A stretch of DNA of 64,000 nucleotides from Acidimicrobiales bacterium (GTDB taxonomy: Bacteria > Actinomycetota > Acidimicrobiia > Acidimicrobiales > VFJN01). Shown piece after piece: positions 32,124 to 55,703 of this stretch. A model generated the notes under the pieces. That model had not been told where the DNA came from, made no database searches, and saw nothing but the letters and a program-made list of their open reading frames with translations. Each line of letters begins with the position of its first letter. The first letter of the stretch is position 1. Where the stretch lies: positions 3,434 through 67,433 of the forward strand of contig DATHJB010000017.1 of the NCBI GenBank assembly GCA_035316325.1, given 5' to 3'. The position numbers were made by a program, and so were the translations under genes.

Positions 32124-32149
32124 ATTTCTCCTATCCGCGTAGTGCGAAT
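32124..32149. promoter_or_regulatory. 26-bp dyad operator upstream of sufC-sufS-sufU
   Basis: ATTTCTCCTA-TCCGCG-TAGT-GCG-AAT, abutting a TAGAAT -10-like box (32149-32154). Same layout as 55678-55703. Confidence 0.75.
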
Positions 32150-32152
32150 AGA

Positions 32153-32932
32153 ATGCCCCGCATGCCTGAGCCCGTGACAGAGCCGTCGCCTGAGCTCTTC
32201 GCTGTCCAGAACCTGCACGTCCGGGTCGCCGGGACCGACAACGAGATCCTCCGCGGCGTCGACCTCGCCATCGGCGCGGGCGAGCTGCACGCCCTGATGG
32301 GGCCCAACGGGTCGGGCAAGTCGACCCTGGCCAACGCCCTGCTCGCCAGCCCCGAGTACGAGGTCACCGACGGGCGCATCCTGTTCCGGGGCGAGGACGT
32401 CACCGACTGGGACACCGAGGTCCTCGGCAAGGCCGGCATCTTCCTGGCCTTCCAGTACCCGCAGACCATCCAGGGCGTGTCGGTGATCAACTTCCTCCGC
32501 CAGGCGCTGTCGGCCCGCAAGGGCATCGACCTCTCGGTCCTCGAGCTGCGCCTGGCGATCATGGAGTGGATGGAGCGCCTCGACATGGATCCGGCGTTCG
32601 CCGACCGGTACCTCAACGAGGGCTTCTCGGGCGGCGAGAAGAAACGCAACGAGATCCTCCAGATGGCCATCCTCGAGCCCGAGGTGGCGATCCTCGACGA
32701 GACCGACTCCGGCCTCGACATCGACGCGCTCAAGGTGGTCGCCCGAGGCGTCGAGGAGGTCCGCAAGGACCGGCCCGAGCTGGGCATCCTGGCCATCACC
32801 CACTACCAGCGGCTGCTCGACTACCTGCAGCCCGACGTGGTCCACATCCTGATCGACGGACGGATCGTCGCCTCGGGCGGTCCGGAGCTGGCGAAGCAGC
32901 TCGAAGCGGAGGGTTACGAGGCATGGCGTTGA
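32153..32932 (+). CDS. sufC: Fe-S assembly ATPase SufC (copy 1)
   Basis: MGPNGSGKSTL, FQYP, NEGFSGGEKKRNE, LDETDSGLDIDAL. ATG 32162 is an alternative, possibly leaderless, start. Confidence 0.95.
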   Translation: MPRMPEPVTEPSPELFAVQNLHVRVAGTDNEILRGVDLAIGAGELHALMGPNGSGKSTLANALLASPEYEVTDGRILFRGEDVTDWDTEVLGKAGIFLAFQYPQTIQGVSVINFLRQALSARKGIDLSVLELRLAIMEWMERLDMDPAFADRYLNEGFSGGEKKRNEILQMAILEPEVAILDETDSGLDIDALKVVARGVEEVRKDRPELGILAITHYQRLLDYLQPDVVHILIDGRIVASGGPELAKQLEAEGYEAWR

Positions 32933-34191
32933 ACCACACCCCCGGAGCGGCCGACGTGCCCGAGCTCGACGTCCCTACCATCCGCAAGAAGTTCCCCATC
33001 CTCGACCAGCAGATGAACGGCCACCGCCTCGTCTACGTCGACTCGGCGTCGTCGTCGCAGAAGCCGGCGTCGGTCATCGACGCCATGAGCCGCTACTACG
33101 AGACCACCCACGCCAACGTGCACCGCGGCGTCTACGCCATCGCCGAGGAGGCCACCCGCCTCTACGAGCAGGCCCGCACCAAGGTGGCCCGCTTCGTCGG
33201 CGCCCCCTCCCCCAACGGCGTGATCTTCACCAAGAACGTCACCGAGGCCATCAACCTGGTGGCGTACTCGTGGGGCCGGGCCAACCTGCAGGCCGGCGAC
33301 GCCATCCTGCTCACCGAGATGGAGCACCACGCCAACCTGGTGCCGTGGCTGATCCTGGCCCAGGAGCGGGGCGTCGAGCTCCGGTACCTGCCGGTCACCG
33401 ACGACTACCAGCTCGACCTGACCGAACTCGACCGCCTCGTCGACGGCGTGAAGCTGGTCTCGGTCACCGCCATGTCGAACGTGCTCGGCACGCTCACGCC
33501 GCTCGACCGCCTGGTCGACGCCGCCCACGCCGCCGGCGCGCTGATCCTGGTCGACGGCGCCCAATACGTCCCCCACCTGCCCACCGACGTGCAGGCCCTC
33601 GACGTCGACTTCTTCGGCTTCACCGGCCACAAGATGCTCGGGCCGACCGGCATCGGCGTGCTGTGGGCCCGCGAGGAGCTGCTGGAGGCCATGCCGGCGT
33701 TCCTCGGCGGCGGCGAGATGATCCGCGACGTGCGGCTCGACGGCTGGACGCCCAACGACCTTCCCTGGAAGTTCGAGGCCGGCACGCCACCGATCGCCGA
33801 GGCCGTGGGCCTGGCCGTGGCGGTCGACGAGCTGACCGCCATCGGTATGGACGCCGTGCGGGCCCACGAGGTGTCGCTGACGGGGTACGCCCTGCGCACG
33901 CTCACCGAGCGCTTCGGCGACGACCTCGCCATCCACGGTCCCTCCGAGCCGTCGCAGCGAGGCGGCGTCGTGTCGATGCAGCTGGGTGACATCCACGCGC
34001 ACGACGTCTCGCAGGTGCTCGACCAGCACGGTGTGTGCGTGCGGGCCGGGCACCACTGCGCCAAGCCGCTGATGCGGCGTCTCGGCGTCAACGCCACGGC
34101 CCGGGCGTCGTTCTACGTGTACAACGACACGGACGACGTCGACGCACTGGCCGACGCGCTCGCAGCGACGCGAGACTTCTTCGCCATCTAG
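32923..34191 (+). CDS. sufS: Cysteine desulfurase SufS
   Basis: YVDSASSSQKP, ANVHRG, EMEHHAN, TGHKM, EAGTP, RAGHHCA. Confidence 0.95.
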   Translation: MALNHTPGAADVPELDVPTIRKKFPILDQQMNGHRLVYVDSASSSQKPASVIDAMSRYYETTHANVHRGVYAIAEEATRLYEQARTKVARFVGAPSPNGVIFTKNVTEAINLVAYSWGRANLQAGDAILLTEMEHHANLVPWLILAQERGVELRYLPVTDDYQLDLTELDRLVDGVKLVSVTAMSNVLGTLTPLDRLVDAAHAAGALILVDGAQYVPHLPTDVQALDVDFFGFTGHKMLGPTGIGVLWAREELLEAMPAFLGGGEMIRDVRLDGWTPNDLPWKFEAGTPPIAEAVGLAVAVDELTAIGMDAVRAHEVSLTGYALRTLTERFGDDLAIHGPSEPSQRGGVVSMQLGDIHAHDVSQVLDQHGVCVRAGHHCAKPLMRRLGVNATARASFYVYNDTDDVDALADALAATRDFFAI

Positions 34192-34211
34192 TCCGGAAGG
34201 AACCCCAGCGC

Positions 34212-34712
34212 ATGCCCGGTCTCGAAGATCTCTACCGCGAGATCATCCTCGACCACTATCGCAACCCACGGAACCGGGGTGAGCTCCCCGTGCCGCCCAG
34301 CACCCGGGTGGAGGGGTTCAACCCGCTGTGCGGCGACGAGATCGTGGTCTACCTCGAGGTCGATCCCGACACCGACACCGTGAGCGACCTGCGCATCGAT
34401 GGGCAGGGCTGCTCGATCAGCCAGTCGTCGGCGTCGATGATGTCGGCGGCGGTGAAGGGCAGGACGCTCGACGAGGTGCGGGCGCTCTCCCGGGCGTTCA
34501 AGGCGATGATGTCGATCCACGAGCAGGCGCTCGACGACGGGTCCGACGGCGCCGACGCCACCACGGCCGACGACCTGGAGATCCACGAGGACGTGAAGCT
34601 CGGCGACCTGGAGGCTCTCCGCGGGGTCGTGAAGTTCCCGGTCCGCATCAAGTGCGCGACCCTCTCGTGGAACACCCTGCTCCAGGGCCTCGAGGAGACC
34701 GCCAAGCCGTAA
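34212..34712 (+). CDS. sufU: SufU (NifU/IscU-like sulfur transfer protein)
   Basis: LYREIILDHY.NPRN.G, NPLCGD, GCSISQ.SASMM, RIKCATL. Confidence 0.93.
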   Translation: MPGLEDLYREIILDHYRNPRNRGELPVPPSTRVEGFNPLCGDEIVVYLEVDPDTDTVSDLRIDGQGCSISQSSASMMSAAVKGRTLDEVRALSRAFKAMMSIHEQALDDGSDGADATTADDLEIHEDVKLGDLEALRGVVKFPVRIKCATLSWNTLLQGLEETAKP

Positions 34713-34724
34713 CGCCGCCGATCC

Positions 34725-34769
34725 CCCAACCTCCGCCCGGGACACCGCGCTTCGGGGCGGAACGGGGGA
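34725..34769 (+). terminator. Probable hairpin terminator after sufU
   Basis: ccccc-aacctccgccc...ggggcggaac-ggggg imperfect stem. Confidence 0.4.
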
Positions 34770-34783
34770 AGCATGCGGAGGAT

Positions 34784-35166
34784 CTCTGGACCGCGGAGCT
34801 GGGCGCGGCGATCAGCGTCGCCCCTGCCGTCGCCGGCGACACGATCCTGGTGGCGGCCGACGACGGGCGGCTGGTGGCGCTCCCCGCGGCCGGCTGCGGC
34901 GCCCCGACCTGCACGCCGGGGTGGGAGGCGTCGGTGGGTGGCACGCCCGCGACGGCGCCGGTGGTCGGTGGCGAGGTGGTGTACGTCGCCACCACGGCGG
35001 GCGACGTGGCCGCCTTCCCGCTCGGCGGCTGCGCGTCGCCACCGCCGTGCGCGCCGCTGACCACGGTCTCGGCCGGCAGCCGGGTCACGGGTGGCACGCC
35101 CGCGACGGCCGGGTGGTGGTCGGCACGGAGGACGGCCGCCTGGTCGCCTTCGGACTCCCGGGGTAA
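34784..35166 (+). pseudogene. 5'-truncated, frameshifted PQQ-like beta-propeller gene fragment
   Basis: LWTAELG...AGCGAPTCTP...VVYVA, then a frameshift near 35100 to GRVVVGTEDGRLVAFGLPG*. Parallels the C-terminus of 35522-36712. Confidence 0.7.
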
Positions 35167-35173
35167 CCGCCCG

Positions 35174-35458
35174 CTACTCGCCGAGGGCGCTGTTGACGGC
35201 GGCGGCGAGGGCGAAGCACTGCTCGGTGATGCCGCCCTCGGCGTGGCTGGAGATGTCGATCACCACCCGGTTCCAGCTGTTCGACCAGTCGGGGTGGTGG
35301 TTCAGCTTCTCGGCATGGATGGCGACCATGGTCATGAAGCCGAAGGCCTCCACGAAGTTGCGGAGCTCGATCTCCCGGTGGAGCCGACCGTCGGCGAGCC
35401 CCCAGCCCGGCACTTCGACCAGGCGGGCCTCGGCTTCGTCGTGACTGAGGCGTGTCAT
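35174..35458 (-). CDS. phhB: Pterin-4-alpha-carbinolamine dehydratase
   Basis: GW...L.R...F..AFGFM..VA..AEKLNHHPDWSNSWNRV.I...SH..GGIT. Confidence 0.9.
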   Translation of the reverse strand: MTRLSHDEAEARLVEVPGWGLADGRLHREIELRNFVEAFGFMTMVAIHAEKLNHHPDWSNSWNRVVIDISSHAEGGITEQCFALAAAVNSALGE

Positions 35459-35521
35459 GCCAGATCCTTGCCCCGCCGGCACGGGATAGATTCCTGCCCG
35501 AGGCGAACCAGGGGGAAAGCG

Positions 35522-36712
35522 ATGCGCAGGTTCTGGGGGATTCTGGGCGTGGCCGCGCTCGCCACGTCGTTGGGCGGCTGCTGGCTCCAGCAGGGGTTCG
35601 ACGCGGGGCACACCCGCTACAACCCCGACGAGACGGCGATCACCAGCGCCAACGTCGACCAGGTCGTGCAGCTGTGGTCGGCCGACACGGGTGACGTACC
35701 CGTCACGTGGCCGCTGTCGGTGAACGGGTGGGTCTTCGCGGTCTCCCCGACCGACGGGACGTCGGGGAACCGCATCATCGGGGTCGACGCCGCCACCGGC
35801 GCGATCGCCTGGGACACCACGCACTCCGTGTCGGGGTGGCAAATGGGCGCTCCCGTGTACCTCGACGGCAACGTCGTCGTGCCCTACGGCTACCTCCGGG
35901 TCGGCGGCTACGCCTTCGTCGAGGCGACGACGGGCGCCATCGTCGACGACCGGGGGCAGTCGAGCGGCACGTGGGGCAGCGCCGTGGTCGACGGCGAGCT
36001 CGTCACCACGGGCTCCTTCTACGGCTCGGTCATCCCGATCCCCTACAGCGCCTCGATCTACGGGCCGTGCACCGCGTCCATCGCCGGCGTCATGCCCAAC
36101 TCCCCACCGCCGCCGCGGACCGACTTCGCCTACGTCGGCACCGACGTCATGTGGAACTCGGGTACGCGTGCACAGGGTTTCGTCGGCTGCGACCCCGAGA
36201 CCGGGCAGTACACCACGACGTGGCTCACCGAGCTGGGCGGCCAGCCCACCGGCGTGGTCGCCGTCGGCGACGACGACGTCGCCTACACCGACGCGACCGG
36301 CACCCTCACGGTGCTCGACTCGAGCACGGGAGCTGTCCTCTGGACCGCCGAGCTGGGTGGCTCCCCCGCCGCACCGGCCGTCGCCGAGGGACAACTGTTC
36401 GCCACGACCGGCGACAACCGGCTGGTCGTGCTCAACGCCGCCACCGGGGCCGTGCAGTGGGAGGCCGCGCTCGGCGAGGGCGGCAGGGCCACCGTGGCCG
36501 GCGACGTCGTGTACGTGACGCAGGTCGCCGGCGACACGATCCTCGCCTTCGCCCGTGCCGGCTGCGGTGCCGCGACCTGCACCCCGTTGACGACGATCAC
36601 CGTCGGCGGCGACATGACGAGCGACCCCATCGTCGACGACGGGCGCCTGGTGGTCGGCACCACCGACGGCCGCATCGTCGCCTACGGGCTTCCCGACGAT
36701 TACTCCGGGTAG
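35522..36712 (+). CDS. PQQ-like beta-propeller repeat lipoprotein
   Basis: Signal peptide with LGGC lipobox. Repeated DA.TG..(L)W / LNAATGAVQW blades. Confidence 0.8.
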   Translation: MRRFWGILGVAALATSLGGCWLQQGFDAGHTRYNPDETAITSANVDQVVQLWSADTGDVPVTWPLSVNGWVFAVSPTDGTSGNRIIGVDAATGAIAWDTTHSVSGWQMGAPVYLDGNVVVPYGYLRVGGYAFVEATTGAIVDDRGQSSGTWGSAVVDGELVTTGSFYGSVIPIPYSASIYGPCTASIAGVMPNSPPPPRTDFAYVGTDVMWNSGTRAQGFVGCDPETGQYTTTWLTELGGQPTGVVAVGDDDVAYTDATGTLTVLDSSTGAVLWTAELGGSPAAPAVAEGQLFATTGDNRLVVLNAATGAVQWEAALGEGGRATVAGDVVYVTQVAGDTILAFARAGCGAATCTPLTTITVGGDMTSDPIVDDGRLVVGTTDGRIVAYGLPDDYSG

Positions 36713-36748
36713 GGTCTCGCTCCACCGATCCAGCGACCGGGGGATGCG

Positions 36749-38152
36749 ATGGGACTCGACCAAGCCGAGCTGACGCCGTTGTTCGAGAAGGTCGTCGGAG
36801 CCGGCAACGTGCTCGCCGGCGACGCCGCCAGCGACGACTACAGCCACGACGAGGCCCTCACCACCCCGCCCGTCGCTCCGGCCGCCGTGGTGCTCCCGGC
36901 GACGACCGAGGAGGTCGCCGCGGTCCTCCGGCTGGCCGACGAGCACCGCATCCCCGTGACCGCCCGCGGTGCCGGCACCGGCATGTCGGGCGCCTGCGTC
37001 CCCCAGGCCGACGGCATCGTCGTGTCCTTCGAGCGCATGAACCACGTGCTGGAGGTCGACGAGGAGAACTACGTCGCCGTGGTCGAGCCGGGCGTGCAGC
37101 TCGACCAGCTCGACGCCGTGCTCGCCCCGCTCGGCCTCGTCTACCCGGTGTTCCCCGGCGAGTACTCGGCCAGCCTGGGCGGCAACGTGAGCACCAACGC
37201 CGGCGGCATGCGGGCCGTGAAGTACGGCGTCACCCGCCAGCACGTGCTGGGCCTCGACGCCGTGCTGCCGTCGGGCGAGGTGATCCAGTGCGGCGGCAAG
37301 ATCGTGAAGGTCTCCACCGGCTACGACCTCACCCAGCTCGTCGTCGGCTCCGAGGGCACGCTCGCCCTGGTCACCAAGGCCTACCTCAAGCTCTATCCCC
37401 GCCCGGCCCACGGCGCCACCGTGCTCGCGCCCTTCACCACGCTCGACGAGGTGACCAACGCGGTGCCGAAGATCGTGGCCAGCGGCGTCGGCCCGCTCAT
37501 CCTCGAGTACATCGACATGCTGACGATGGCCGCCATGTCGTCGCACCTCGGGCTGGAGCTGGGCATCCCCGACGACGTGAAGGAGCGGGCCTTCGCCTAC
37601 CTGGTGGTCGGGCTGGAGAGCACCCACGCCGACCGCCTGGACGAGGATGCCCAGACGGTCAGCGAGCTGATCGCCGAGCTGGGCGCCATCGACGTGTACG
37701 TGCTGCCGCCCGCCGCCGCCACCCAGCTCATCGACGCCCGCGAGAAGGCGTTCTGGGTGGCCAAGGCCAGCGGCGCCGACGACATCATCGACGTGGTCGT
37801 GCCCCGGGCCAGCGTCCCGGAGTTCATGCAGAAGGTGGGCGAGATCGCGTCCGCCAACGGCGCCTGGATCGCCGGCTGCGGCCATGCCGGCGACGGGAAC
37901 GTCCACATGGCGGTGTTCCAGAAGGACGAGGAGGCGCGCCACCGGGTGATGACCGAGCTGTTCCGGACGGGCATGGACCTGGGCGGTGCGATCTCCGGGG
38001 AGCACGGGCTCGGGCGGGCCAAGAAGGGGTACTTCCTCGAACTGGAGGATCCCGCCAAGATCGCCCTGATGCGCCGCATCAAGACCGCCTTCGACCCCAA
38101 CGGGATCCTCAACCCCGGCACGATCTTCGACGACGAGGAGTATCACGCATGA
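36749..38152 (+). CDS. FAD-linked oxidase, GlcD/D-2-hydroxyacid dehydrogenase family
   Basis: RGAGTGMSG, SLGGNVSTNAGG..AVKYG, GSEGTL, GHAGDGNVH, SGEHGLG, DPNGILNPG. Confidence 0.9.
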   Translation: MGLDQAELTPLFEKVVGAGNVLAGDAASDDYSHDEALTTPPVAPAAVVLPATTEEVAAVLRLADEHRIPVTARGAGTGMSGACVPQADGIVVSFERMNHVLEVDEENYVAVVEPGVQLDQLDAVLAPLGLVYPVFPGEYSASLGGNVSTNAGGMRAVKYGVTRQHVLGLDAVLPSGEVIQCGGKIVKVSTGYDLTQLVVGSEGTLALVTKAYLKLYPRPAHGATVLAPFTTLDEVTNAVPKIVASGVGPLILEYIDMLTMAAMSSHLGLELGIPDDVKERAFAYLVVGLESTHADRLDEDAQTVSELIAELGAIDVYVLPPAAATQLIDAREKAFWVAKASGADDIIDVVVPRASVPEFMQKVGEIASANGAWIAGCGHAGDGNVHMAVFQKDEEARHRVMTELFRTGMDLGGAISGEHGLGRAKKGYFLELEDPAKIALMRRIKTAFDPNGILNPGTIFDDEEYHA

Positions 38153-39705
38153 ACGGTGCCCAGGCCCTGATCCGCACCCTGGTGGCGAGCGGGGTCGACA
38201 CCTGCTTCGCCAACCCGGGCACGTCGGAGATGCACTTCGTCGCCGCGCTCGACACCGTCCCCGAGATGCAGGGCGTGCTGGCGCTGTTCGAGGGCGTCGC
38301 CACCGGTGCCGCCGACGGCTACGCCCGCATGTCCGGCCGGCCGGCCGCCACCCTGCTGCACCTCGGCCCGGGCCTGGGCAACGGCCTCGCCAACCTCCAC
38401 AACGCCCGCAAGGGGCATGTGCCGATCGTCAACGTCGTCGGCGACCACGCCACCTACCACAAGCACTACGACGCCCAGCTGGAGTCCGACATCGAGACCG
38501 TGGCCCGCAACGTGTCGCCGTGGATCCGCACGTCGGCGTCGTCGGCCGACGTGGGGCGCGACGCCGCCGAGGCCGTCGCCGCCGCCGTCGGTCCGCCGGG
38601 CGAGGTGGCCACGCTGATCCTGCCGGCCGACGTGAGCTGGCTCGACGGGGGCGAGGTGGCCGACCCGGTGGCGCCCCGGGCCCGGGCGGAGGTCGACGGC
38701 GACGTGGTCGACGCCGTGGCCAAGGCGCTGCGCTCGGGTGAGCCGACGGCGTTCCTGCTGGGCGGGGCGGCCCTGGTCGAGCCGGCGCTGCTGGCCGCCA
38801 GCCGGGCCGCCAACGCGGCCGGGGCGAAGCTGCTGGCCGAGACGTTCCCCACCCGCGTCGAGCGGGGCGCCGGCCTGCCGGGGGTCGAGCGGATCGCCTA
38901 CCTGGCCGAGTTCGCGGCCATGCAGCTGGGTGGCCTGCGCCACCTGGTGGTGGTCGACAGCAAGGCGCCGGTGAGCTTCTTCGCCTACCCGGGCAAGGAC
39001 AGCTACCTGGTGCCCGACGGCTGCGAGGTGCACGTGCTGGCCGAGGGCCACCACGACGTCACCGGTGCCCTGGAGGCCCTCGCGGAAGCGGTGGGCGCTC
39101 CGGCCGACGGTGCCGTGCTGCAGCCGTCGATGCTCCCCGGCACGCCGTCCGGGCCCCTGACCCCCGACGCCATCGCCCAGGCCATCGGGGCGCTGCTGCC
39201 GGAGGGGGCGATCGTGTCGGACGAGGCCAACACGTCGGGCCTGTCGATCCCCGGCCACACCGCAGGCTCGCCCCGGCACGACTGGCTGTGCCTCACCGGT
39301 GGGGCGATCGGCCAGGGCATGCCGGTGGCGACCGGTGCCGCCGTCGCCTGCCCGGACCGCAAGGTGCTGAGCCTGCAGGCCGACGGCAGCGCCCTCTACA
39401 CCCTCCAGTCGCTGTGGACCCAGGCCCGCCACGGGCTCGACGTGGTCACGATCCTCTACAACAACCGGTCGTACGCGGTGCTCAACATGGAGCTCAACCG
39501 GGTCGGCGCCGAGGCGCCCGGTCCCAAGGCGAAGGCCCTGCTCGACCTCTCGGGCCCCGACATCGACTTCGTGTCGCTGTCCCAGGGACTCGGCGTCCCC
39601 GCCACCCGCGCCACCACGGCCGACGAGCTCTCCGACCAGCTCGCCCGAGCCCTCGCCACCGAAGGCCCCACCCTCATCGAGGCGATGGTCCCCTCGATCA
39701 TGTAG
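38149..39705 (+). CDS. ThDP-dependent enzyme, acetolactate synthase large-subunit-like
   Basis: MNGAQALI, FANPGTSEMH, LFEGVATGAADGY, ADGSALYT...NN ThDP motif. ATGA overlap. Confidence 0.88.
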   Translation: MNGAQALIRTLVASGVDTCFANPGTSEMHFVAALDTVPEMQGVLALFEGVATGAADGYARMSGRPAATLLHLGPGLGNGLANLHNARKGHVPIVNVVGDHATYHKHYDAQLESDIETVARNVSPWIRTSASSADVGRDAAEAVAAAVGPPGEVATLILPADVSWLDGGEVADPVAPRARAEVDGDVVDAVAKALRSGEPTAFLLGGAALVEPALLAASRAANAAGAKLLAETFPTRVERGAGLPGVERIAYLAEFAAMQLGGLRHLVVVDSKAPVSFFAYPGKDSYLVPDGCEVHVLAEGHHDVTGALEALAEAVGAPADGAVLQPSMLPGTPSGPLTPDAIAQAIGALLPEGAIVSDEANTSGLSIPGHTAGSPRHDWLCLTGGAIGQGMPVATGAAVACPDRKVLSLQADGSALYTLQSLWTQARHGLDVVTILYNNRSYAVLNMELNRVGAEAPGPKAKALLDLSGPDIDFVSLSQGLGVPATRATTADELSDQLARALATEGPTLIEAMVPSIM

Positions 39706-39718
39706 GCGGTCGCTCCGG

Positions 39719-40231
39719 TCAGGTGGCGACCAGGGCCTCCCAGTCGGGGATCGCGTCGAGGACAGGTTGCACGTAGGCGTCGACGACCTCCGCGGGCGCC
39801 TCGTTGGCGCCGCCGCACACCGAGAAGGAGGTGTCGGCCAGGGTCTCGCCGCGGTCCGTGATCTCGAGGGACCGGCTGGTGCCACCGTCACAGCCGCCGT
39901 CGTCCTCGACGTCGAGGTCGGCGACGGTTCCGCCGTCGGACACCAGGTCGTCCCAGACGTCGGCGGGCAGGGGCGCGGTGACGTCCTCGATCACGTCGCC
40001 GTAGCTGTCGACCACCGCGCGGACCTCGGTCGCGTCGATCGTCAGGGTGTAGCTGCGGTGGAACTCCGGCGGCACCGACGCGTCGCCGAACTCGTAGGTG
40101 ATCGAGGCCTCGTCGCTGAGCGTGACGTCGTCGCCGTCGTCGGCACCGTCGTCGTCGCCGCACGCCGCGGCGACGCCCACGAGGCCGATGATGGCGAGGA
40201 CGAGTGCCAGCCTCGCCGTCGTCGCCGTCAC
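39719..40231 (-). CDS. Hypothetical lipoprotein
   Basis: Signal peptide with AAAC lipobox and an acidic mature domain containing a Cys pair. Confidence 0.7.
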   Translation of the reverse strand: MTATTARLALVLAIIGLVGVAAACGDDDGADDGDDVTLSDEASITYEFGDASVPPEFHRSYTLTIDATEVRAVVDSYGDVIEDVTAPLPADVWDDLVSDGGTVADLDVEDDGGCDGGTSRSLEITDRGETLADTSFSVCGGANEAPAEVVDAYVQPVLDAIPDWEALVAT

Positions 40232-40542
40232 CCCGGAGCGCTCCCGGGGAGGGTGAACCAGGGGCCCGTGCGGCCGTGGGTGATGTCGATCTGTCGCCAG
40301 ATGTCGTGGACCTTGTAGGGCTCGTCGTCGAGCCAGGCTTCGACGTCGGCACGGGTGGGGAGGTCGACCACCATCACCGAGCCGATCATCCGCTCGGCGT
40401 CGTTCAGCAGGGCGACCGCGAACAGGAGCGTGCCCAGCTCCACCATCTTCTCGCAGCGGGCCATGTGCTCCGGCCGCACCGCGATCCGACGCTCGCGCGC
40501 ACCGTCGTCGTCATGGTCATGGGCGATCACCACGAACTGCAT
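40228..40542 (-). CDS. YciI-family protein
   Basis: MQFVVIAHD...RR...RPEH, GSVMVV, W..DEPY. Confidence 0.85.
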   Translation of the reverse strand: MQFVVIAHDHDDDGARERRIAVRPEHMARCEKMVELGTLLFAVALLNDAERMIGSVMVVDLPTRADVEAWLDDEPYKVHDIWRQIDITHGRTGPWFTLPGSAPG

Positions 40543-40614
40543 CGCCCGACCATGCCCCAGCCGGCACCGGGGGTGCACGTTTCACGGGCAAATGCTTGAC
40601 CTGAGGGTCGAGGT

Positions 40615-47677: not shown

Positions 47678-47820
47678 CAGGTCGCTCCTTCCCCAGACTG
47701 GGCTAGTGGGCCGGCCCCGCCGCAGGCCGGCCCACCGCCGCGGTGTCCAGGAACCGGTCTCCGCTCCGCCACGAACGTGACCACCGCTGGCTCCCAGGAC
47801 GTTTCCGCTGATGAGCACTT

Positions 47821-47850
47821 TGCAACAGGGCCCGCAAAGAACGCGCAACG
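47821..47850. promoter_or_regulatory. GCAA direct repeats at about one helical turn spacing in the divergent promoter
   Basis: GCAA at 47822, 47834 and 47845, between the GMC gene and the SARP gene. Confidence 0.35.
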
Positions 47851-47977
47851 TCGCCGACAGCAGAGCGCGCGAGGTGTTCGCACGACCGCGACCAGCGGTG
47901 GCGGCCTTTGCCCTGTCTCGCGCACGCAGTGTCACACTGGGTGTCGGCTCTTCCGGGACGACGGTACGGGGAGGCAG

Positions 47978-50900
47978 ATGGGGCTCGAGATCACGCTCGT
48001 GGGGGACGTGACCATCCGTCGGACGAACGCGGCCGACGGGACCGGCGTCGACCAGCCCCGTCGGCTGCGCAGCGCCCAGGCGCGCGTGGCCTTCGCCCTG
48101 CTCACCCTGGAGCGCCAGCGGGGCGTCACCCGAGATGCCCTGGCCGAGGCCGTGTGGCCCGAGGGACTGCCCGCCACCTGGGAATCGGCGCTGCGGACGG
48201 TGGTGAGCCGGGTGCGGGCGTTCGTCGCCCCCGACGCCGCCTCGGGCGACGACGGCGGGCCGCTGGTGGCCCACGGCGGCCGCTACCTGCTGCACCTGCC
48301 CGACGACGTGGTGGTCGACGTCGAGCACGCCGACACCTGCCTGACGGAGGCCCAGTCGGCGACCGCGGCGGGCGACGTCGAGCGGGCCCGGCGGCTCGCG
48401 CAGACCGCGGTCGATCGTTTGCGCCCGCCGTTCCTGCCCGACCATGACGGCGAGTGGGTGACCAACCAGCGCGAGCAGGTCGCGGCCCAGCTGGTGACCG
48501 GGCTGGAGCTGCTCAGCCAGACGGCCTCCCAGCTGGGTGACCACGCCAGCGCCCTGGCCGCCGCCAACGACGCCGTCGCCCGGACGCCGTTGCGCGAGAG
48601 CGCCCACCGCTGCCGCATGGCGGCCCACGCTGCCGCCGGCAACCGCGCCGAGGCGCTGCGGGCCTACCAGCAGCTGCGCACGATGCTGGTCGACGAGATG
48701 GGCGTCGACCCGTCGCCCGAGACCGAGACCGCCTACCTGTCGCTGCTGGGCCCGCTCCCGGCGACCCACCGGCCGGTGCTGGCCGCGGCCGACGCCCCTC
48801 GCGCCGCCGCACCCGCCATGCCGCCGGGCTCACCGCCCCCGTTCGTGGGCCGGGAGGCCGAGCTGGCGGAGCTGCGTGCGGCGTGGCGGGCCGCGCGGGC
48901 GGGGCAACCCCGGCTGGTGCTGATCAGCGGCGAGGCGGGCAGCGGCAAGACCCGGCTGGCGAGCGAGGCGGCCCGTGAGATCGGCGCCGACGGTGCCCTG
49001 GTGCTGCTGGGCCGCTGCGACCCCACCCACGGCACCCCCTACCAGCCACTGGTCGAGCTGCTCGACGGCTTCCTCTACGCCCTCCCCCGCGACTGGACGC
49101 AGGAGTGGCGGCCCATGGTGCGCGCCGCGCTGGCCACGGTGTTCCCGTCGGTCGCCGGCCCCGACGACCCTCCGCCCGGAGCGATCCACGACCGGGCCCA
49201 GCTGTTCGACGCGGTCACCGAGATCCTGGTCGACGCCGCCGGCGACCGACCCATCCTGATCGTGCTCGACGACGCCCCCGCCGCCGACGAGGACTCCCTG
49301 GCCCTGCTCCGGCACCTGGTGCGCCACGTCGGCGAGGCGCCGCTGCTGGTGGTGGCGCTGGCCCAGCCCCGCGTCCCCTACGGCCACCCGCTCGCCGACA
49401 CGCTCCGGGCCCTCGACCGCGACGGCCTGCTGCAGCGCCTCCCGCTGGGCGGGCTCACCGAGAACGACGTGCGCGACCTGCTGGAGCTGATCCGCCCCGG
49501 CGACTCCGTCGAGGCGCGGGCGCGGCTCACCCGGTCGCTGCTGGCCGACACATCGGGCAACCCGCTGATGCTGGTGGAGCTGCTGCGCGACATCGACGAG
49601 GGTCCCGACCACGTCGTGCCGGCCGGCGTGCAGGACCTGGTCGAGCGCAAGCTCGACGGGCTGGGCGACGCGGCGCACGACCTGCTGCGGGCCGCCGCGG
49701 TGGCGGCCGTGGGCGGGCAGGAGTTCGACCTCGACCTGGTGGAGCACGCCCTCGGCCTCGACCGCCTGGCCGTGCTCGACGCCCTCGACGAGGCCCTCGA
49801 CAGCGGGCTGGTGGCCGAGGTGGGCACCGGCTACCGCTTCACCCAGGAGGTGACGCGCCGCACGCTGTACGACCGCCTCAGCGAGCCCCGGCGCCGCCAC
49901 CTGCACGAACGCCTGGCCGACGCCATCGAGGCGCTCCGGGCCGGGTCGCCGGACGACCACGCGGCCACGCTCGCCGAGCACCGCTTCGCCGCGGCGACAA
50001 GCGGCGGTGACCGCCGGGCGGTGGCGTCGGCCCGTGCCGCGGCAGCTCGGGCCCGGGCCGACCGGGCGCCGGCCGAGGTCGTGCGGCTCTGCGAGGTGGC
50101 CCTGGCCCACGTGCCGGGCGACGACCTCGTCCTGCAGACCGAGGTGCTCACCGACCTGGGCCTGGCGCTGGCCGACGCCGGCGAGAGCCGCGCCGAGCAG
50201 GTGCTCCTCGGCGCCGCTCTCCAGGCCCGCCGCTGCGCCCGCCCCGACCTGGCCGCCCGGGCCGCGCTCGGCCTGGCCGACATGGCCCGCGCCCTGCCCG
50301 CCCTCCGCCCGGACGTGGCGGCGCTGGTGGACGACCTCGTCGACTCGGTGGAGCCGACCGACCTCGTGACCGCTCGGCTGGTCGCCAGGCACGTGGAGCT
50401 CGGCGCCGGCGACGGGGTGTCACAGCAGGTCGTCACCACCGCGTCGAGCACGCTGCTCGCCCGGCTCGACGAGCTGGCCGGCCCGGAGGACCTCGCCGAA
50501 CGCCTCAGCCTGGCGACCGAGCTGGTCGCCCTCAGCACGCGACTCGACCACGACCGCGCCGCCGCTCTGGCCGCAGCCGCCGCCCACCACCGGGCCATGG
50601 CCGCGGCGCTGACGGGCGACTGGAAGACCGCCGACCACACCCTCGGCCGGGCCGGTGACCAGGCCATGCGGGCGCAACGGGCGGTCGTGGTGGCGGTGAC
50701 GCAGGGCGACTTCGCCGGAGCCGCGGCGCTGGCCGAGAAAGGCGCGCCAACGGCGTCGGCCCGCCGCCAGCTGCTGGTGGCCCGCTGGCTCCAGGGCCGC
50801 CTCGGCGCCGACGACGCCGACGACGACACCGGCTACGACCCTGCCGAGCAGGTGCTGATCGCCCTCGACCGCGGCAACCGGGGCCAGGCCCGTCTGGCGA

Positions 50901-51331
50901 TGCACGACCTGGCCAACGGCGTCGATCCCCTGCCGGGCGGCGACACCTGCCTGCATTCGCTGGGCCTGCTGGCGCTGGCCGCGGTCGAGCTGGGCGACGC
51001 CGCCACCGCCGAGGCCGTGCGCCGGCAGCTGGCGCCCCACGCCGAGCTGTGGTGCGCCGACGGCTACCGCAGCTTCGTCGGCACGGCCGGCTTCCACATG
51101 GGCCGGCTGGCCGCGGTGGGCGGCGACCTGGCCTATGCCGAGCGCTACCTCATGCCCGCGCTCAGCCAGCACGCCGAGATGCAGGCCCGCCCGTGGGTCG
51201 CCCTCACCCAGCACGCCCTCGCCGACGTGCTGGCCGCCCGGGGCCGGGCGTCGGACCGCGACTGGGTCGACGCCCTGCGCTCCGAGGTCCGCTGGATGGC
51301 CGCCGACCTCGGCCTCCGCCCCCTCAAATAA
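47978..51331 (+). CDS. SARP (wHTH+BTAD)-AAA ATPase-TPR transcriptional regulator (AfsR-like)
   Basis: ALLTLER..V.RDALAEAVW, PLRESAH..RM.A.AAAGNRAEALR.Y, GVDPSPET, GEAGSGKT, IVLDD, TSGNP. Confidence 0.9.
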   Translation: MGLEITLVGDVTIRRTNAADGTGVDQPRRLRSAQARVAFALLTLERQRGVTRDALAEAVWPEGLPATWESALRTVVSRVRAFVAPDAASGDDGGPLVAHGGRYLLHLPDDVVVDVEHADTCLTEAQSATAAGDVERARRLAQTAVDRLRPPFLPDHDGEWVTNQREQVAAQLVTGLELLSQTASQLGDHASALAAANDAVARTPLRESAHRCRMAAHAAAGNRAEALRAYQQLRTMLVDEMGVDPSPETETAYLSLLGPLPATHRPVLAAADAPRAAAPAMPPGSPPPFVGREAELAELRAAWRAARAGQPRLVLISGEAGSGKTRLASEAAREIGADGALVLLGRCDPTHGTPYQPLVELLDGFLYALPRDWTQEWRPMVRAALATVFPSVAGPDDPPPGAIHDRAQLFDAVTEILVDAAGDRPILIVLDDAPAADEDSLALLRHLVRHVGEAPLLVVALAQPRVPYGHPLADTLRALDRDGLLQRLPLGGLTENDVRDLLELIRPGDSVEARARLTRSLLADTSGNPLMLVELLRDIDEGPDHVVPAGVQDLVERKLDGLGDAAHDLLRAAAVAAVGGQEFDLDLVEHALGLDRLAVLDALDEALDSGLVAEVGTGYRFTQEVTRRTLYDRLSEPRRRHLHERLADAIEALRAGSPDDHAATLAEHRFAAATSGGDRRAVASARAAAARARADRAPAEVVRLCEVALAHVPGDDLVLQTEVLTDLGLALADAGESRAEQVLLGAALQARRCARPDLAARAALGLADMARALPALRPDVAALVDDLVDSVEPTDLVTARLVARHVELGAGDGVSQQVVTTASSTLLARLDELAGPEDLAERLSLATELVALSTRLDHDRAAALAAAAAHHRAMAAALTGDWKTADHTLGRAGDQAMRAQRAVVVAVTQGDFAGAAALAEKGAPTASARRQLLVARWLQGRLGADDADDDTGYDPAEQVLIALDRGNRGQARLAMHDLANGVDPLPGGDTCLHSLGLLALAAVELGDAATAEAVRRQLAPHAELWCADGYRSFVGTAGFHMGRLAAVGGDLAYAERYLMPALSQHAEMQARPWVALTQHALADVLAARGRASDRDWVDALRSEVRWMAADLGLRPLK

Positions 51332-51333
51332 CC

Positions 51334-51386
51334 CCGAAACTTCGACACAGATGGCGCCATGGCCACCACTTCTGTCGAGATTTCGG
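51334..51386. terminator. Intergenic stem-loop filling the gap between convergent genes
   Basis: ccgaaacttcgacacaga...tctgtcgagatttcgg. Confidence 0.6.
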
Positions 51387-52184
51387 CTATTCGCCGCCGA
51401 AGAGGTCGGCGAAGGTCTCGGTGCGGCGGATCGTGACCGGCTCCTCCTCGGCCAGCTCGGAGCCGAGCATCCCGGCGTAGCCGTCGCGCTCCAGCTCCTC
51501 GGCCAGCTCGGGGCCGCCCGAGCGCACCACCATCCCCCGGGCGAGCACGTGCACCCGGTCGGCCCGCAGCTCGGAGAGCAACCGGCTGTAGTGGGTGATC
51601 GCCAGCACGCCGAGGCCGTTGTTGGTGGCGGCCTCGATGCGCCGGGAGCAGGCCCGCAGCGCGTCGACGTCGAGCCCGGAGTCGAGCTCGTCGAGCACGG
51701 CGATCGCCGGCTGCAGCACCGCCAGCTGCAGGGTCTCGTTCTTCTTCTTCTCGCCGCCCGACAGGTCGACGTTGAGCGCCCGGCCCAGCAGGCGGGCGTC
51801 GAGGTCGAGCCGCGACGCCTCGGCCTCGATGCGCAGGTCGACGCCCTCGGGGTCGCGCCCTGCCGCCGCCAGCGCATAGCTCAGCAGCTCCTGCAGCGAC
51901 ACGCCCGGCACCTCGGTCGGGTACTGCAGCGCCAGGAACAGCCCGGCCTGCGCCCGCTCGTAGGGGGTCATCGCGAGGATGTCCCGGCCGTCGAGCGTCA
52001 CCGAGCCGCCCAGCACCTCGTAGCCGGGGCGCCCCATGATCACGTGGGCCAGCGTCGACTTGCCTGACCCGTTGGGCCCCATCACCGCGTGCACCTCGCC
52101 CGACCGCACGGTCAGGTCGACGCCCCGCAGGATCTCCTTACCGGCGACACCGGCCCGCAGGCCCGAGATCTCGAGGACAGCCAT
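51387..52184 (-). CDS. sufC: Fe-S assembly ATPase SufC (copy 2)
   Basis: MGPNGSGKSTL, LQYP, NVDLSGGEKKKNE, LDELDSGLDVDAL. Confidence 0.92.
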   Translation of the reverse strand: MAVLEISGLRAGVAGKEILRGVDLTVRSGEVHAVMGPNGSGKSTLAHVIMGRPGYEVLGGSVTLDGRDILAMTPYERAQAGLFLALQYPTEVPGVSLQELLSYALAAAGRDPEGVDLRIEAEASRLDLDARLLGRALNVDLSGGEKKKNETLQLAVLQPAIAVLDELDSGLDVDALRACSRRIEAATNNGLGVLAITHYSRLLSELRADRVHVLARGMVVRSGGPELAEELERDGYAGMLGSELAEEEPVTIRRTETFADLFGGE

Positions 52185-52495
52185 CAGTCGACCACCACCA
52201 ACACGTCGTCGCCGTCGACGACGACCTCGTAGACGGGCACACCCTTGGTGGCCGGCAGGGTCAGCGACTCGCCGGTCTCCAGCGAGAACTCGCTGCCGTG
52301 CTTCCAGCACTCGATGGTCTTCTCACCGGTGTGGATCTCGCCCTCGGACAGCGAGATGTTCTGGTGCGAGCAGACGTCGCCGATGGCGTACACGTCGTCG
52401 TCCAGGCGCACCACGGCGATGTGCCGCCCGTCGACGTCGAACCGCCGAGCCGTGTTCGGCTCCAGCTCGTCGAACGCGCAGATCCGCTGCTTCAC
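52184..52495 (-). CDS. Rieske-type [2Fe-2S] ferredoxin
   Basis: CSH...ECWKHGS Rieske motifs. GTG start at 52495 overlaps the sufD stop. Confidence 0.92.
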   Translation of the reverse strand: MKQRICAFDELEPNTARRFDVDGRHIAVVRLDDDVYAIGDVCSHQNISLSEGEIHTGEKTIECWKHGSEFSLETGESLTLPATKGVPVYEVVVDGDDVLVVVD

Positions 52496-53775
52496 GATTC
52501 TCTCCGGTCGAACTTGGCGGCCACGGTCTTCGCCAGCACCGAAGCGAGGCCCGCGACGGGCAGCTTGGCCAGCACCTCGCCGAAGAAGCCGCCCACGATG
52601 AGGCGCTCGGCCACGTCGGTCGGCAGGCCCCGGCTCTCCAGGTAGAAGCGCTGCTCCTCGTCGATCGGGCCAACGGCCGAGGCGTGGCTGCAGCGCACGT
52701 CGTTGTTCTCGATCATCAGGTTGGGGATCGACTCGGCCCACGCCTGCTCGGACAGCTTCACGTTGCGGTTCGTCTGGAAGGCGTTGGTGCCCCGGGCATC
52801 CTTCCCGACCCGGATGAGCCCCGTGTACACCGAGCGGGAACGACCGCCACCGGCCCCCTTGAACAGCAGGTTGCTGGTGCAGTCAGGGGCGACGTGCTCC
52901 TGGAAGGTGCGGAAGTCGAGCGTCTGGTCGCCCTCGCCGAAGTAGATGGCGTCGAGCTCGCCGGTGGCGCCCCGGCCGACCATGCGGCAGTCGGTGCGCA
53001 GGCGGGCGTACTCGCCGCCGAAGCCCACCGACGTGGAGCGGAACGTGGCCTCGGCCTCGACCCGGGAGGCCTGCAGGCCGATCTGCCAGGTGGACAGGTC
53101 GAGCTGCTGCACGTTGACGAAGCCGACCCGGGCGGCCCGCTCGGCCACGATCTCGGTGACCGGCACCACCAGGCCACCCTGGCCCGCCGACACCTGCACC
53201 TCGATCACCGACGCCGAGCTGTCGGCGCCGGCGTGGACCACCAGGCGGGGGAAGGCCGCCACCCGGTCGCCCTCGGTGACGTGCACGACCACCACGGGGG
53301 CGGGCAGCACCAGGCCGTCGGGGATGCGCACGACGACGGGCTCCAGCTGGGCGGCGTCGTTCAGGAGGGTGAAGGCGTCGGTGGCGGAGGGAGTGGGGCC
53401 CTCGCTGGAGAGCGCCTCGCCCAGCACGCCGACGTCGCCCTCGGCCGCCGGTCCGACCAGCAGGCCCTTGGCGGCGAGGCCCTCGTCGACCTCGACGTCG
53501 ACCACCCGGCCGTTGCGGGCGACGACCGTGGCCGCCCGGTCGACCAGGGCGCCGAGTACGTCGGGCACGTGCGACGACACGCCGCCGCGGCCGGGACCGT
53601 CGGACAGGGTGTACCCGTCGAGGTCGAGGTCGTCGATGCGGCTGTAGCGCCACAGCTCCTCGTCGGTGCTGGGCATGTCGACCTTGGCGAAGGCGGCGAG
53701 CGCCTCGGCCCGCCGCTCACGCAGCCAGTCGGGGCCGTCCAGCTCGAGGACGGCATCGGTCAGCGACGTGCTCAC
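52492..53775 (-). CDS. sufD: Fe-S assembly protein SufD
   Basis: DEELWRYS, DFRTFQEH.APDC.SNLLFKG, NAFQTNRN, SIPNL.IENNDVRCSH, FYLESRG. Confidence 0.92.
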   Translation of the reverse strand: MSTSLTDAVLELDGPDWLRERRAEALAAFAKVDMPSTDEELWRYSRIDDLDLDGYTLSDGPGRGGVSSHVPDVLGALVDRAATVVARNGRVVDVEVDEGLAAKGLLVGPAAEGDVGVLGEALSSEGPTPSATDAFTLLNDAAQLEPVVVRIPDGLVLPAPVVVVHVTEGDRVAAFPRLVVHAGADSSASVIEVQVSAGQGGLVVPVTEIVAERAARVGFVNVQQLDLSTWQIGLQASRVEAEATFRSTSVGFGGEYARLRTDCRMVGRGATGELDAIYFGEGDQTLDFRTFQEHVAPDCTSNLLFKGAGGGRSRSVYTGLIRVGKDARGTNAFQTNRNVKLSEQAWAESIPNLMIENNDVRCSHASAVGPIDEEQRFYLESRGLPTDVAERLIVGGFFGEVLAKLPVAGLASVLAKTVAAKFDRRES

Positions 53776-53808
53776 GTGTGAACCTCTACCTCGACCCGGA
53801 GCTCAGAC

Positions 53809-54168
53809 TCAGGAACGCTTGCGCCACCAGCGCTTCCAGCGGGGAGACTCCTCCTCGCGGCGCTGGGCCTGCACCTCGGCCAGGACGGAAGGCCCGACCG
53901 AGTTGATGATCTCCTCGGCCTCGTCGAGCAGCTTGGCCACCGAACCGTCGCCACGGTCGAGCGCGTCGAGCGGCTCGGCCGGTGTGGCCGGGGTGACCAG
54001 GGTGCCGTGGGCCCAGTTGACGTCGGCCATGCGCCGCTCGTAGCGGGGACAGTCGGCCGGGCAACGCCAAGGGGCCTCGGGGGCGAGATCGAGATCGCAC
54101 TTCCGCACCGTCTCGCCGTTGCGATAGGTGCGGGACTCGAAGTGCTTGCAGTCCTGGCGCATCGGCAC
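53809..54168 (-). CDS. Uncharacterised 4-Cys protein inside the suf operon
   Basis: MRQDCKHFESRTY.NGETVRKCDLDLAPEAPWRCPADCPRYERR. Co-oriented between sufB and sufD. Confidence 0.8.
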   Translation of the reverse strand: MPMRQDCKHFESRTYRNGETVRKCDLDLAPEAPWRCPADCPRYERRMADVNWAHGTLVTPATPAEPLDALDRGDGSVAKLLDEAEEIINSVGPSVLAEVQAQRREEESPRWKRWWRKRS

Positions 54169-54232
54169 AGCGCCATTGTGCCAGGACTGCAGGATGGAGC
54201 GGTATGCAGGTCAGCGGACATTCAGCTTGGGT

Positions 54233-55633
54233 CTAACCGACCGAGCCTTCCATCTGGAGCTCGATCAGCCGCGACCACTCCACGGCGTACTCCATGGGCA
54301 GGGTGCGGGTGACGGGCTCGATGAAGCCGTTGACGATCATGCTCATCGCCTGCTCGTCGCTGAGACCTCGGCTCTTCAGGTAGAAGAGCTGCTCGTCGGC
54401 CACCTTCGACACCGTCGCCTCGTGACCGACGACCGCGTCGCGGGCACCGATCTCCATGGTGGGGAAGGTGTCGCTGATCGAGTCCTCGTCGAGGATCAGG
54501 GCGTCGCACTGCACGTGGCTCTTGCAGCCGTAGGCGTCGTCCTCGACCCGGACCAGGCCGCGGTACGACGTGCGGCCGCCGTCCTTGGAGATCGACTTCG
54601 ACACGATCTTCGAGGTGGTCTCGGGGGCAGCGTGCACCATCTTGGCGCCGGCGTCCTGGTGCTGGCCCGGCCCTGCGTAGGCGACCGAGAGAACCTCGCC
54701 CGACGCCTTCGGGCCGACCATGTACACCGACGGGTACTTCATGGTGAGCCGCGAGCCGATGTTGCCGTCGATCCACTCCATGTGGCCCTCGGCCTCGACC
54801 CGCGCCCGCTTGGTGACCAGGTTGAACACGTTGTTCGACCAGTTCTGGATGGTCGTGTAGGTGACCCGGGCGCTGGGCTTGACCACGATCTCGACCACCG
54901 CGGAGTGCAGCGAGTCGGACGTGTACACCGGCGCCGAGCAGCCCTCGATGTAGTGCACCCGCGAGCCCTCGTCGGCGATGATCAGCGTGCGCTCGAACTG
55001 GCCCATGTTCTCGGTGTTGATCCGGAAGTAGGCCTGCAGGGGCATGTCGACCTCGACGCCCGGCGGCACGTAGATGAACGACCCGCCCGACCACACCGAC
55101 GAGTTCAGCGCCGAGAACTTGTTGTCGTTCTTGGGGATGATCTTGCCGAAGTAGGGCTTGACGATCTCGGGGTAGTCGCGCAGCGCCGTGTCCATGTCGC
55201 AGAAGATGACGCCCTGCTTCTCGAGGTCCTCACGGTTGCGGTGGAACACGACCTCGGACTCGTACTGGGCGGTGACGCCGGCCAGGTACTTCCGCTCCGC
55301 CTCCGGGATGCCCAGCTTCTCGTAGGTGTTCTTGATGGCGTCGGGCAGCTCGTCCCACTGGTCGACCTGACCCTCGGTGGGCTTCACGTAGTAGAAGATG
55401 TCGTCGAAGAAGATCTGGGACATGTCGCCGCCCCAGTTCGGCATGGGACGACGTTCGAAGTGCTTGAGCGAGCTGAGGCGGAAGTCGAGCATCCAGTCGG
55501 GCTCGCCCTTCATCCACGACATCTCGCGGACGATCTCCTCGTTCAGGCCCTTGCGGGGCTTGAAGACGTAGTTGCTCTCTTCGTCGGACCAACCGAGCTT
55601 GTAACGCCCCAGGTCGAGATCAGCAACGGCCAT
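54233..55633 (-). CDS. sufB: Fe-S assembly protein SufB
   Basis: [47 protein letters not shown]. Confidence 0.97.
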
Positions 55634-55677
55634 GTGTGCGGTTCCTTCGTCCTTGACGGTCGGCAGAAGGCTGCGGA

Positions 55678-55703
55678 ATTTCTCCTACGGCGATAGTAGC
55701 AAT
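55678..55703. promoter_or_regulatory. 26-bp dyad operator upstream of sufB
   Basis: ATTTCTCCTA-CGGCGA-TAGT-AGC-AAT, overlapping a TACTAT -10-like box on the minus strand. 17/26 identical to 32124-32149 with no gaps. Confidence 0.75.

Follow-up and report, generated by a model that had tools for sequence, protein, structure and literature searches.

The window analysed here is a stretch of 64,000 nucleotides (nt; C17:3434-67433) from a 6.37-Mb draft genome of an Acidimicrobiales bacterium (72% G+C, 244 contigs), in which the suf genes for iron-sulfur (Fe-S) cluster assembly are split into two distant operons and a 26-bp dyad matching ATT-N4-CTA-N6-TAG-N4-AAT stands upstream of each. We consider it likely that both dyads are operators of one transcription factor controlling Fe-S cluster biogenesis, and the most likely binder is a SufR-like (COG2345) putative repressor encoded on another contig, C181, whose promoter contains the third and only other dyad. 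A sequence-only reading of this DNA had supposed that a trans-encoded repressor serves both suf halves, and this is still the best reading, since the third dyad precedes a regulator gene and the dyad is conserved across Acidimicrobiales. Judged by its named homologues, the genome belongs to Acidimicrobiales in the phylum Actinomycetota.

Operator 1 (32124-32149), ATTTCTCCTATCCGCGTAGTGCGAAT, lies upstream of sufC1-sufS-sufU and consists of two arms and a spacer, ATTTCTCCTA-TCCGCG-TAGTGCGAAT. Operator 2 (55678-55703), which reads ATTTCTCCTACGGCGATAGTAGCAAT on the (+) strand, lies upstream of sufB and takes the form ATTGCTACTA-TCGCCG-TAGGAGAAAT in the direction of that gene, with 44 nt between the dyad and the sufB ATG; neither site is assigned a strand. 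The two sequences are identical at 17/26 positions on the + strand, the ungapped value given by the sequence-only reading, and at 18/26 in the gene direction because the site is a dyad. The operators face their genes in opposite orientation (sufC1 +, sufB -), a point missing from the earlier reading, which is immaterial for a dyad. The dyad ATT-N3-MCTA-N6-TAGK-N3-AAT, as formulated there, has exactly two matches in the window compared with 0.00 expected from 100 shuffles, and the 10-mer ATTTCTCCTA common to both sites has no other occurrence in the window. Other observations made from the letters were reproduced as well: both 26-bp sequences and both -10-like boxes are present, the context described as ~73% GC has a G+C content of 72.5% over the window, no sufR-like gene lies within the window, and the suf gene assignments are upheld by family scans.

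Genome-wide occurrence and promoter context of the dyad

A symmetrised weight matrix was built from 65 distinct sites of relatives and used to scan the whole draft genome. It returned three sites, at 40.6 bits (operator 2), 38.3 bits (the third site) and 37.2 bits (operator 1), and no further position of the 6.37-Mb sequence scored above 12 bits. A pattern scan of the draft genome likewise found exactly three dyads, and all three flank Fe-S biogenesis genes. Such a scan, covering also the regions upstream of Rrf2 and SufR genes, had been proposed together with the sequence-only reading; its outcome is that the third dyad precedes a SufR-like regulator gene and that no dyad lies near the Rrf2 genes.

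The third dyad (C181:14589-14614), ATTCTACCTACGGCCATAGTGCTAAT, is located outside the window in a divergent intergenic region. On one side, the ATG of a gene for an Mrp/ApbC-type Fe-S carrier with FeS_assembly_P and ParA/NUBPL domains is 17 nt away; on the other side, 7 nt separate the dyad from the GTG start of the SufR-like (COG2345) regulator, a protein of 238 amino acids (gene at about 13868-14581, - strand). The regulator gene is immediately followed by one for an IscS/NifS-like type-I cysteine desulfurase (C181:12855-13856, - strand) with the motifs SAHK and HSGSACAS, and the regulon therefore includes a second sulfur donor besides SufS.

The sequence-only reading had guessed that the repressor would be of the Rrf2 type, and an unlinked regulator of another family, for example an IscR/RsrR-like Rrf2 protein, could in principle be the protein that binds the dyad. 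Rrf2 proteins bind dyads of similar length, and a search with an E. coli IscR sequence found three Rrf2 genes in the genome (C142:23479-23877, C88:12884-13132 and C11:119779-120171), of which the C142 gene encodes a protein with a Cys-rich stretch. However, no dyad is found near any of the three, all three genomic sites are accounted for, the 26-bp AT-ended layout matches the operator of Mycobacterium tuberculosis SufR, and a SufR-like gene stands directly at the third-site dyad in 50/80 genomes of relatives. We thus regard an Rrf2 binder as improbable, and the part of the earlier reading that named this family gained no positive evidence, the dyad-bearing gene being one for a SufR-like COG2345 protein.

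The placement of the dyad relative to promoters differs among the three sites. At sufC1, the last T of the dyad is also the first base of the putative -10 box TAGAAT (32149-32154, + strand), which the ATG follows after 7 nt; relatives have TAGACT or TACACT at the equivalent place, 5-7 nt before the ATG, with no Shine-Dalgarno sequence. The sufC1 mRNA is probably leaderless, judging from this TAnnnT hexamer 5-7 nt before the ATG and the lack of a Shine-Dalgarno sequence. In the regulator class, dyad positions 21-26 read TAGAAT, with the GTG following after 6-7 nt, and the regulator mRNA is also probably leaderless. At sufB, the putative -10 box TACTAT (55693-55698, - strand) occupies dyad positions 6-11, as it does in 29/39 distinct sufB-class sites, and is followed by a leader with a Shine-Dalgarno sequence. 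An E. coli-type -35/-10 scan predicted no promoter at operator 1 or operator 2, so that the -10 assignments rest on the TAnnnT hexamers conserved in relatives.

The -10 box thus occurs in three registers to the dyad, at positions 6-11 (sufB), 21-26 (regulator) and 26-31 (sufC1), and this overlap in different registers points to an operator rather than a mere promoter element and would fit occlusion of RNA polymerase. It bears directly on the possibility that no repressor takes part and that the conserved A/T blocks are only promoter elements, such as -10 boxes or an alternative sigma factor's binding site. In two classes, part of the dyad does read as a -10-like hexamer (TAGAAT at regulator genes, TACTAT at sufB), and regulator orthologues that have no left arm still have TAGAAT followed by 6-7 nt and GTG. 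Against a promoter element speak, besides the three registers of one dyad, the retention of both arms even at sites where one arm lies within the -35 region or the 5' untranslated region, the position of the CTA-N6-TAG core outside any -10 box, and the twofold symmetry, which suits a dimeric protein. We consider this explanation very improbable.

We give almost no weight to the idea that the element acts as RNA, in the form of a hairpin or riboswitch-like leader, or that it is a chance or mobile repeat. The sequence is palindromic and its right arm at sufB is probably transcribed; however, Rfam gave no match, the 26-mers fold no better than shuffles (z = -1.1, -0.3 and +0.6), specific bases rather than covarying pairs are conserved, and the sites at sufC1 and at the regulator lie upstream of probably leaderless starts. 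An RNA element was rejected on the basis of the Rfam and folding results, while a chance or mobile repeat is at odds with the presence of only three copies, all at Fe-S genes.

The C181 regulator and its paralogue

The N-terminus of the C181 regulator is an ArsR-type HTH_20 domain (PF12840, E = 1.2e-12), and residues 22-194, most of its length, show a weak match to SufR_cyano (E = 9e-5). According to published work, the hallmarks of SufR are an AT-hook reading the A/T flanks, an RRH helix, and three Cys together with an acidic or other metal-binding residue at the position of Glu195; in M. tuberculosis SufR, R50 and H52 of the helix are conserved positions, and Asp is among the residues accepted at the ligand position. 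In the C181 regulator, the wing carries an AT-hook, GRP within GAGRPSKRY, helix alpha-3 reads NVARHHLDKL, with A-R-H-H and not R-R-H, and the sensor motif is C178-X12-C191-A-V-D194 ... C226. Among 52 homologues (down to 32% identity), G78-R79-P80, R53, H54, H55, C178, C191 and C226 are all at least 90% conserved. The second Cys stands in CAVD in 77/80 orthologues and in CALD in one more, Asp being present in 78/80. Asp194 may be the counterpart of Glu195, a ligand of the cluster in M. tuberculosis SufR, a reading based on the spacing of the Cys residues and not on an alignment.

An AlphaFold 2 (AF2) model computed from the 52-sequence alignment, with a predicted local distance difference test (pLDDT) score of 87.8, shows a wHTH (winged helix-turn-helix), a long helical linker and an alpha/beta sensor domain; a model from 15 close homologues reached a pLDDT of 55 and was not used. 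In Foldseek comparisons, the N-terminus resembles ArsR/SmtB proteins and the C-terminus resembles Bet3/V4R-like sensors, and single-sequence and profile searches of a PDB copy found no SufR structure. The layout of wHTH and sensor domain, the GRP, the Arg/His helix and the three Cys plus Asp are those of a SufR-like (COG2345) protein. The predicted operators also agree with SufR proper, being AT-ended 26-bp dyads that would lie over the -10 boxes at the two suf promoters and at the regulator promoter; in gene position, the C181 regulator departs from SufR proper, as it is encoded on another contig beside the mrp and iscS-like genes.

Based on these features, we infer that the C181 regulator binds the dyads as a repressor. 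A dimer of the regulator would hold an Fe-S cluster on Cys178, Cys191, Asp194 and Cys226; its GRP AT-hooks would enter the minor groove of the outer ATT/AAT triplets, and the wHTH helix NVARHHLDKL would be positioned over the inner CTA/TAG triplets. With putative -10 boxes and start sites overlapped by the operators, binding would block RNA polymerase at sufC1-sufS-sufU, at sufB-X-sufD-Rieske-sufC2, at the unit of the regulator and the IscS/NifS-like desulfurase, and at the divergent mrp/apbC gene. We also infer that the protein senses the state of Fe-S clusters: when these are scarce or damaged by iron limitation, oxidants or nitric oxide, the cluster would be lost, the protein would leave the DNA, and all units would be derepressed together.

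A second COG2345 regulator is encoded at C148:21441-22028 (- strand), within a locus (C148:21378-23288) where it is divergent from a second mrp/apbC gene; the two regulators are 31% identical, and the two mrp paralogues share 48% identity. The intergenic region of this locus contains no ATT...AAT dyad; an inverted repeat with 7-bp arms (CCGGTGA-N22-TCACCGG) is present there, and TAGAAT precedes the mrp2 GTG by 7 nt. The C148 paralogue, either as the binder in place of the C181 regulator or sharing the operator with it, has to be considered as well. It belongs to the same family, has a CPF...C...C sensor motif and a GRP hook, and is likewise divergent from an mrp gene. In addition, three classical SufR queries detected no canonical SufR in the draft genome, and the only one of the three that retrieved a COG2345 gene (L159) found the C148 paralogue and not the C181 regulator (E = 4.6e-4). 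Set against this, the C148 regulator has no dyad in its own intergenic region, its recognition helix differs (NTVRPHLERM vs. NVARHHLDKL), and the C181-type helix is invariant in 80 orthologues, as are the operator arms. We therefore hold a role of the C148 paralogue at these operators to be quite improbable.

Conservation across Acidimicrobiales

Conservation at orthologous suf genes was one of the points on which the sequence-only reading had staked its proposal, a lack of it being named there among what would count against a shared operator, and the dyad is kept at sufB, sufC1 and regulator genes across Acidimicrobiales. At the regulator loci, the exact dyad occurs in 50/80 species-level Acidimicrobiales genomes, as ATT-N4-CTA-N6-TAGGTAGAAT or ATT-N4-CTA-N6-TAGGTACAAT, mostly 6-7 nt before the regulator GTG/ATG. 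In nearly all of the 80 loci mrp is divergent from the regulator, often with a desulfurase gene downstream; a gene similar to the C181 desulfurase follows the regulator in most of the 80 genomes.

For sufB, 77 metagenome loci with usable upstream DNA were sampled, and the dyad is present with at most two mismatches in 52/77, typically as ATTGTTACTA-N6-TAGGAGAAAT or ATTGTTACTA-N6-TAGTGGAAAT. It is found in nearly all high-G+C loci with a SufB identity of at least 70%. Upstream of sufC1-sufS-sufU, the exact dyad is present in 6/6 distinct loci, including the complete chromosome of Actinomarinicola tropica (CP045851.1). The information content is limited to the arms. Flanks and N6 spacer vary freely, and each large class has 29 different spacers; as the footprint rows were chosen by pattern, the evidence lies in the fraction of loci that match, compared with a chance expectation of about zero. 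Classical sufR-sufB-sufD-sufC-sufS loci have no dyad, and dyad-bearing sufB loci have no adjacent sufR. The upstream regions of classical sufR genes in the metagenome loci contain no comparable AT-ended dyad, which carries no weight for or against the proposal.

On balance, we are inclined to think that Acidimicrobiia are without the canonical operon-linked SufR, and that a distinct COG2345 subfamily governs a class-wide, dispersed Fe-S regulon through ATT-N4-CTA-N6-TAG-N4-AAT. Its members would be the two suf halves, mrp and the additional desulfurase, joined in some relatives by an internal promoter at sufD. Several relatives carry a second dyad, scored at 21-33 bits, that lies within the sufB operon a short way upstream of sufD (L086:5286, L087:5909, L114:4312, L119:4312, L121:2103 and L140:5137), which suggests an internal regulated sufD promoter; in the genome studied here, no dyad occurs upstream of sufD.

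Several points weigh against control of these units by the C181 regulator. Its score against TIGR02702 is 22.2 bits, below the equivalog cut-off of 178.8. Operon-linked actinobacterial SufRs are also below this cut-off, but at 77-88 bits, so that the C181 regulator is to be placed in a separate, more distant subfamily than SufR proper, and its cluster binding is putative. The C148 paralogue, 31% identical and also paired with an mrp paralogue, is an alternative candidate binder. Moreover, 30/80 regulator orthologues have no dyad in their own promoter, the co-occurrence of regulator and suf dyads in one genome was checked for this genome only, and further sites or regulators could be missing from the 244-contig draft.

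In the regulator loci that have no dyad (L013, L017, L020-L022, L024-L026, L028 and others), the DNA-contact motifs are unchanged, and some of these loci retain TAGAAT with a leaderless GTG and an mrp start ~15 nt away. The DNA-contact residues of the regulator are invariant in orthologues with and without a dyad in their own promoter and do not tell the two groups apart. Autoregulation seems to have been lost or moved in the dyad-less lineages. One locus, L077 (CAMCTW010000054.1), is labelled 'MAG: Bifidobacterium breve' although its regulator, dyad and mrp are of the Acidimicrobiia type; since it is near-identical to a contig of Candidatus Microthrix (L078), an error of binning or labelling is probable.

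Relation to known regulators and the suf genes of the window

Previous work showed that the operator of M. tuberculosis SufR (Rv1460) is part of ATTTTGTCACACT-N5-TGTGAAAAT, about 27 bp with AT ends (PMC8371249), and that SufR binding requires the flanking A/T tracts, through its AT-hooks (bioRxiv 10.64898/2025.12.26.696629). The C181 regulator shares with this protein its membership in COG2345, the ArsR-like wHTH, the GRP AT-hook in the wing, the Arg/His-rich helix 3, and three Cys together with an acidic residue at the ligand position; both systems have a dyad with AT ends, about 26-27 bp long, at the suf promoter, and the C181 regulator, like M. tuberculosis SufR, would be an autoregulated repressor, as suggested by the dyad in its own promoter. 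Unlike M. tuberculosis SufR, it is encoded away from the suf operons and paired with mrp and an iscS-like gene, and it would act at three operators where M. tuberculosis SufR has one. The inner half-site resembles CCTA/TAGG and not CACA/TGTG, the putative ligand is Asp and not Glu, helix 3 has ARHH and not RRH, and the sequence similarity to classical SufRs is low (24-32% identity).

For SufR of Synechocystis and Streptomyces avermitilis, the operator is CAAC-N6-GTTG, as cited in a later paper. A palindrome with an N6 spacer at suf genes is shared with these systems, as would be the sensing of Fe-S clusters and repression; the half-sites differ, and their regulators are encoded at the suf operon. 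ArnR of Corynebacterium glutamicum, a COG2345 protein that is not SufR, controls nitrate respiration (narK) and hmp. It demonstrates that COG2345 paralogues with the same AT-hook and [4Fe-4S] design act on genes away from their own; the targets proposed for the C181 regulator belong to Fe-S assembly and not to narK/hmp. With IscR and other Rrf2 regulators, the C181 regulator would share the logic of a cluster-sensing repressor that couples Fe-S demand to several biogenesis operons, including unlinked ones, although it differs from them in protein fold and DNA motif, and the dyad has no association with an Rrf2 gene here.

The sequence-only reading had put the regulon forward as a candidate undescribed one, which is true in part. 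The kind of control is the known SufR type, and we rate the present case as a lineage-specific variant of SufR control, not as a new mechanism. The operator sequence, the unlinked position of the regulator and the wider regulon with mrp and the iscS-like gene were not found described in the searched literature, which contained no paper linking Acidimicrobiia with SufR or describing this operator.

For the abundant and barely studied Acidimicrobiia, the analysis proposes a regulon for which it names a candidate regulator, three operators and a consensus site; such control would account for expression in step of a suf system that is divided between two distant operons and has two SufC paralogues. 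Conserved triplets, ATT/AAT at the outer and CTA/TAG at the inner positions, and an unconstrained spacer make the sites a data set for the recently proposed recognition of DNA by the AT-hook and HTH of SufR-like proteins. If the class-wide picture is true, it would be a natural case of SufR function shifted to a paralogous lineage with rewired targets, and the 'dual-module' model, in which AT-hook plus HTH recognise the DNA, could be tested on these sites as a clean set of operators.

The first suf unit of the window lies on the + strand and begins with sufC1 (32162-32932), which encodes the Fe-S assembly ATPase (TIGR01978, 306 bits); its ATG start at 32162 is supported by close homologues of 255-257 amino acids that align over their full length. 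It is followed by sufS (32923-34191), encoding a class V aminotransferase, the cysteine desulfurase (PF00266, E = 1.8e-134), and by sufU (34212-34712) for a sulfur-transfer protein (TIGR01994, 139 bits).

The second unit lies on the - strand and begins with sufB (54233-55633; TIGR01980, 705 bits). Between sufB and sufD lies open reading frame (ORF) X (53809-54168), which encodes a small Cys-rich protein with four Cys and has no family match in Pfam and NCBIfam scans; it is kept after sufB in relatives with 43-70% identity and is separated from sufB by 1-2 kb of other genes in some of them. The gene sufD (52492-53775; TIGR01981, 220 bits) is followed by a gene for a Rieske-type [2Fe-2S] ferredoxin (52184-52495), whose motif CSHQ...CWKHG was read by eye in the translation, and by sufC2 (51387-52184; TIGR01978, 271 bits), the second SufC paralogue. 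Divergent from sufB, an OmpR-type response regulator (55773-56513, + strand; PF00072 and PF00486) was considered as a regulon member, which is unsupported, as no response regulator homologue was detected upstream of sufB in any metagenome locus.

The two SufC proteins are 49% identical to each other. With 50-57% identity, SufC1 is similar to SufC proteins from classical sufBDCS operons, and SufC2 is a type of its own that follows sufD and the Rieske gene and is conserved among dyad-bearing loci.

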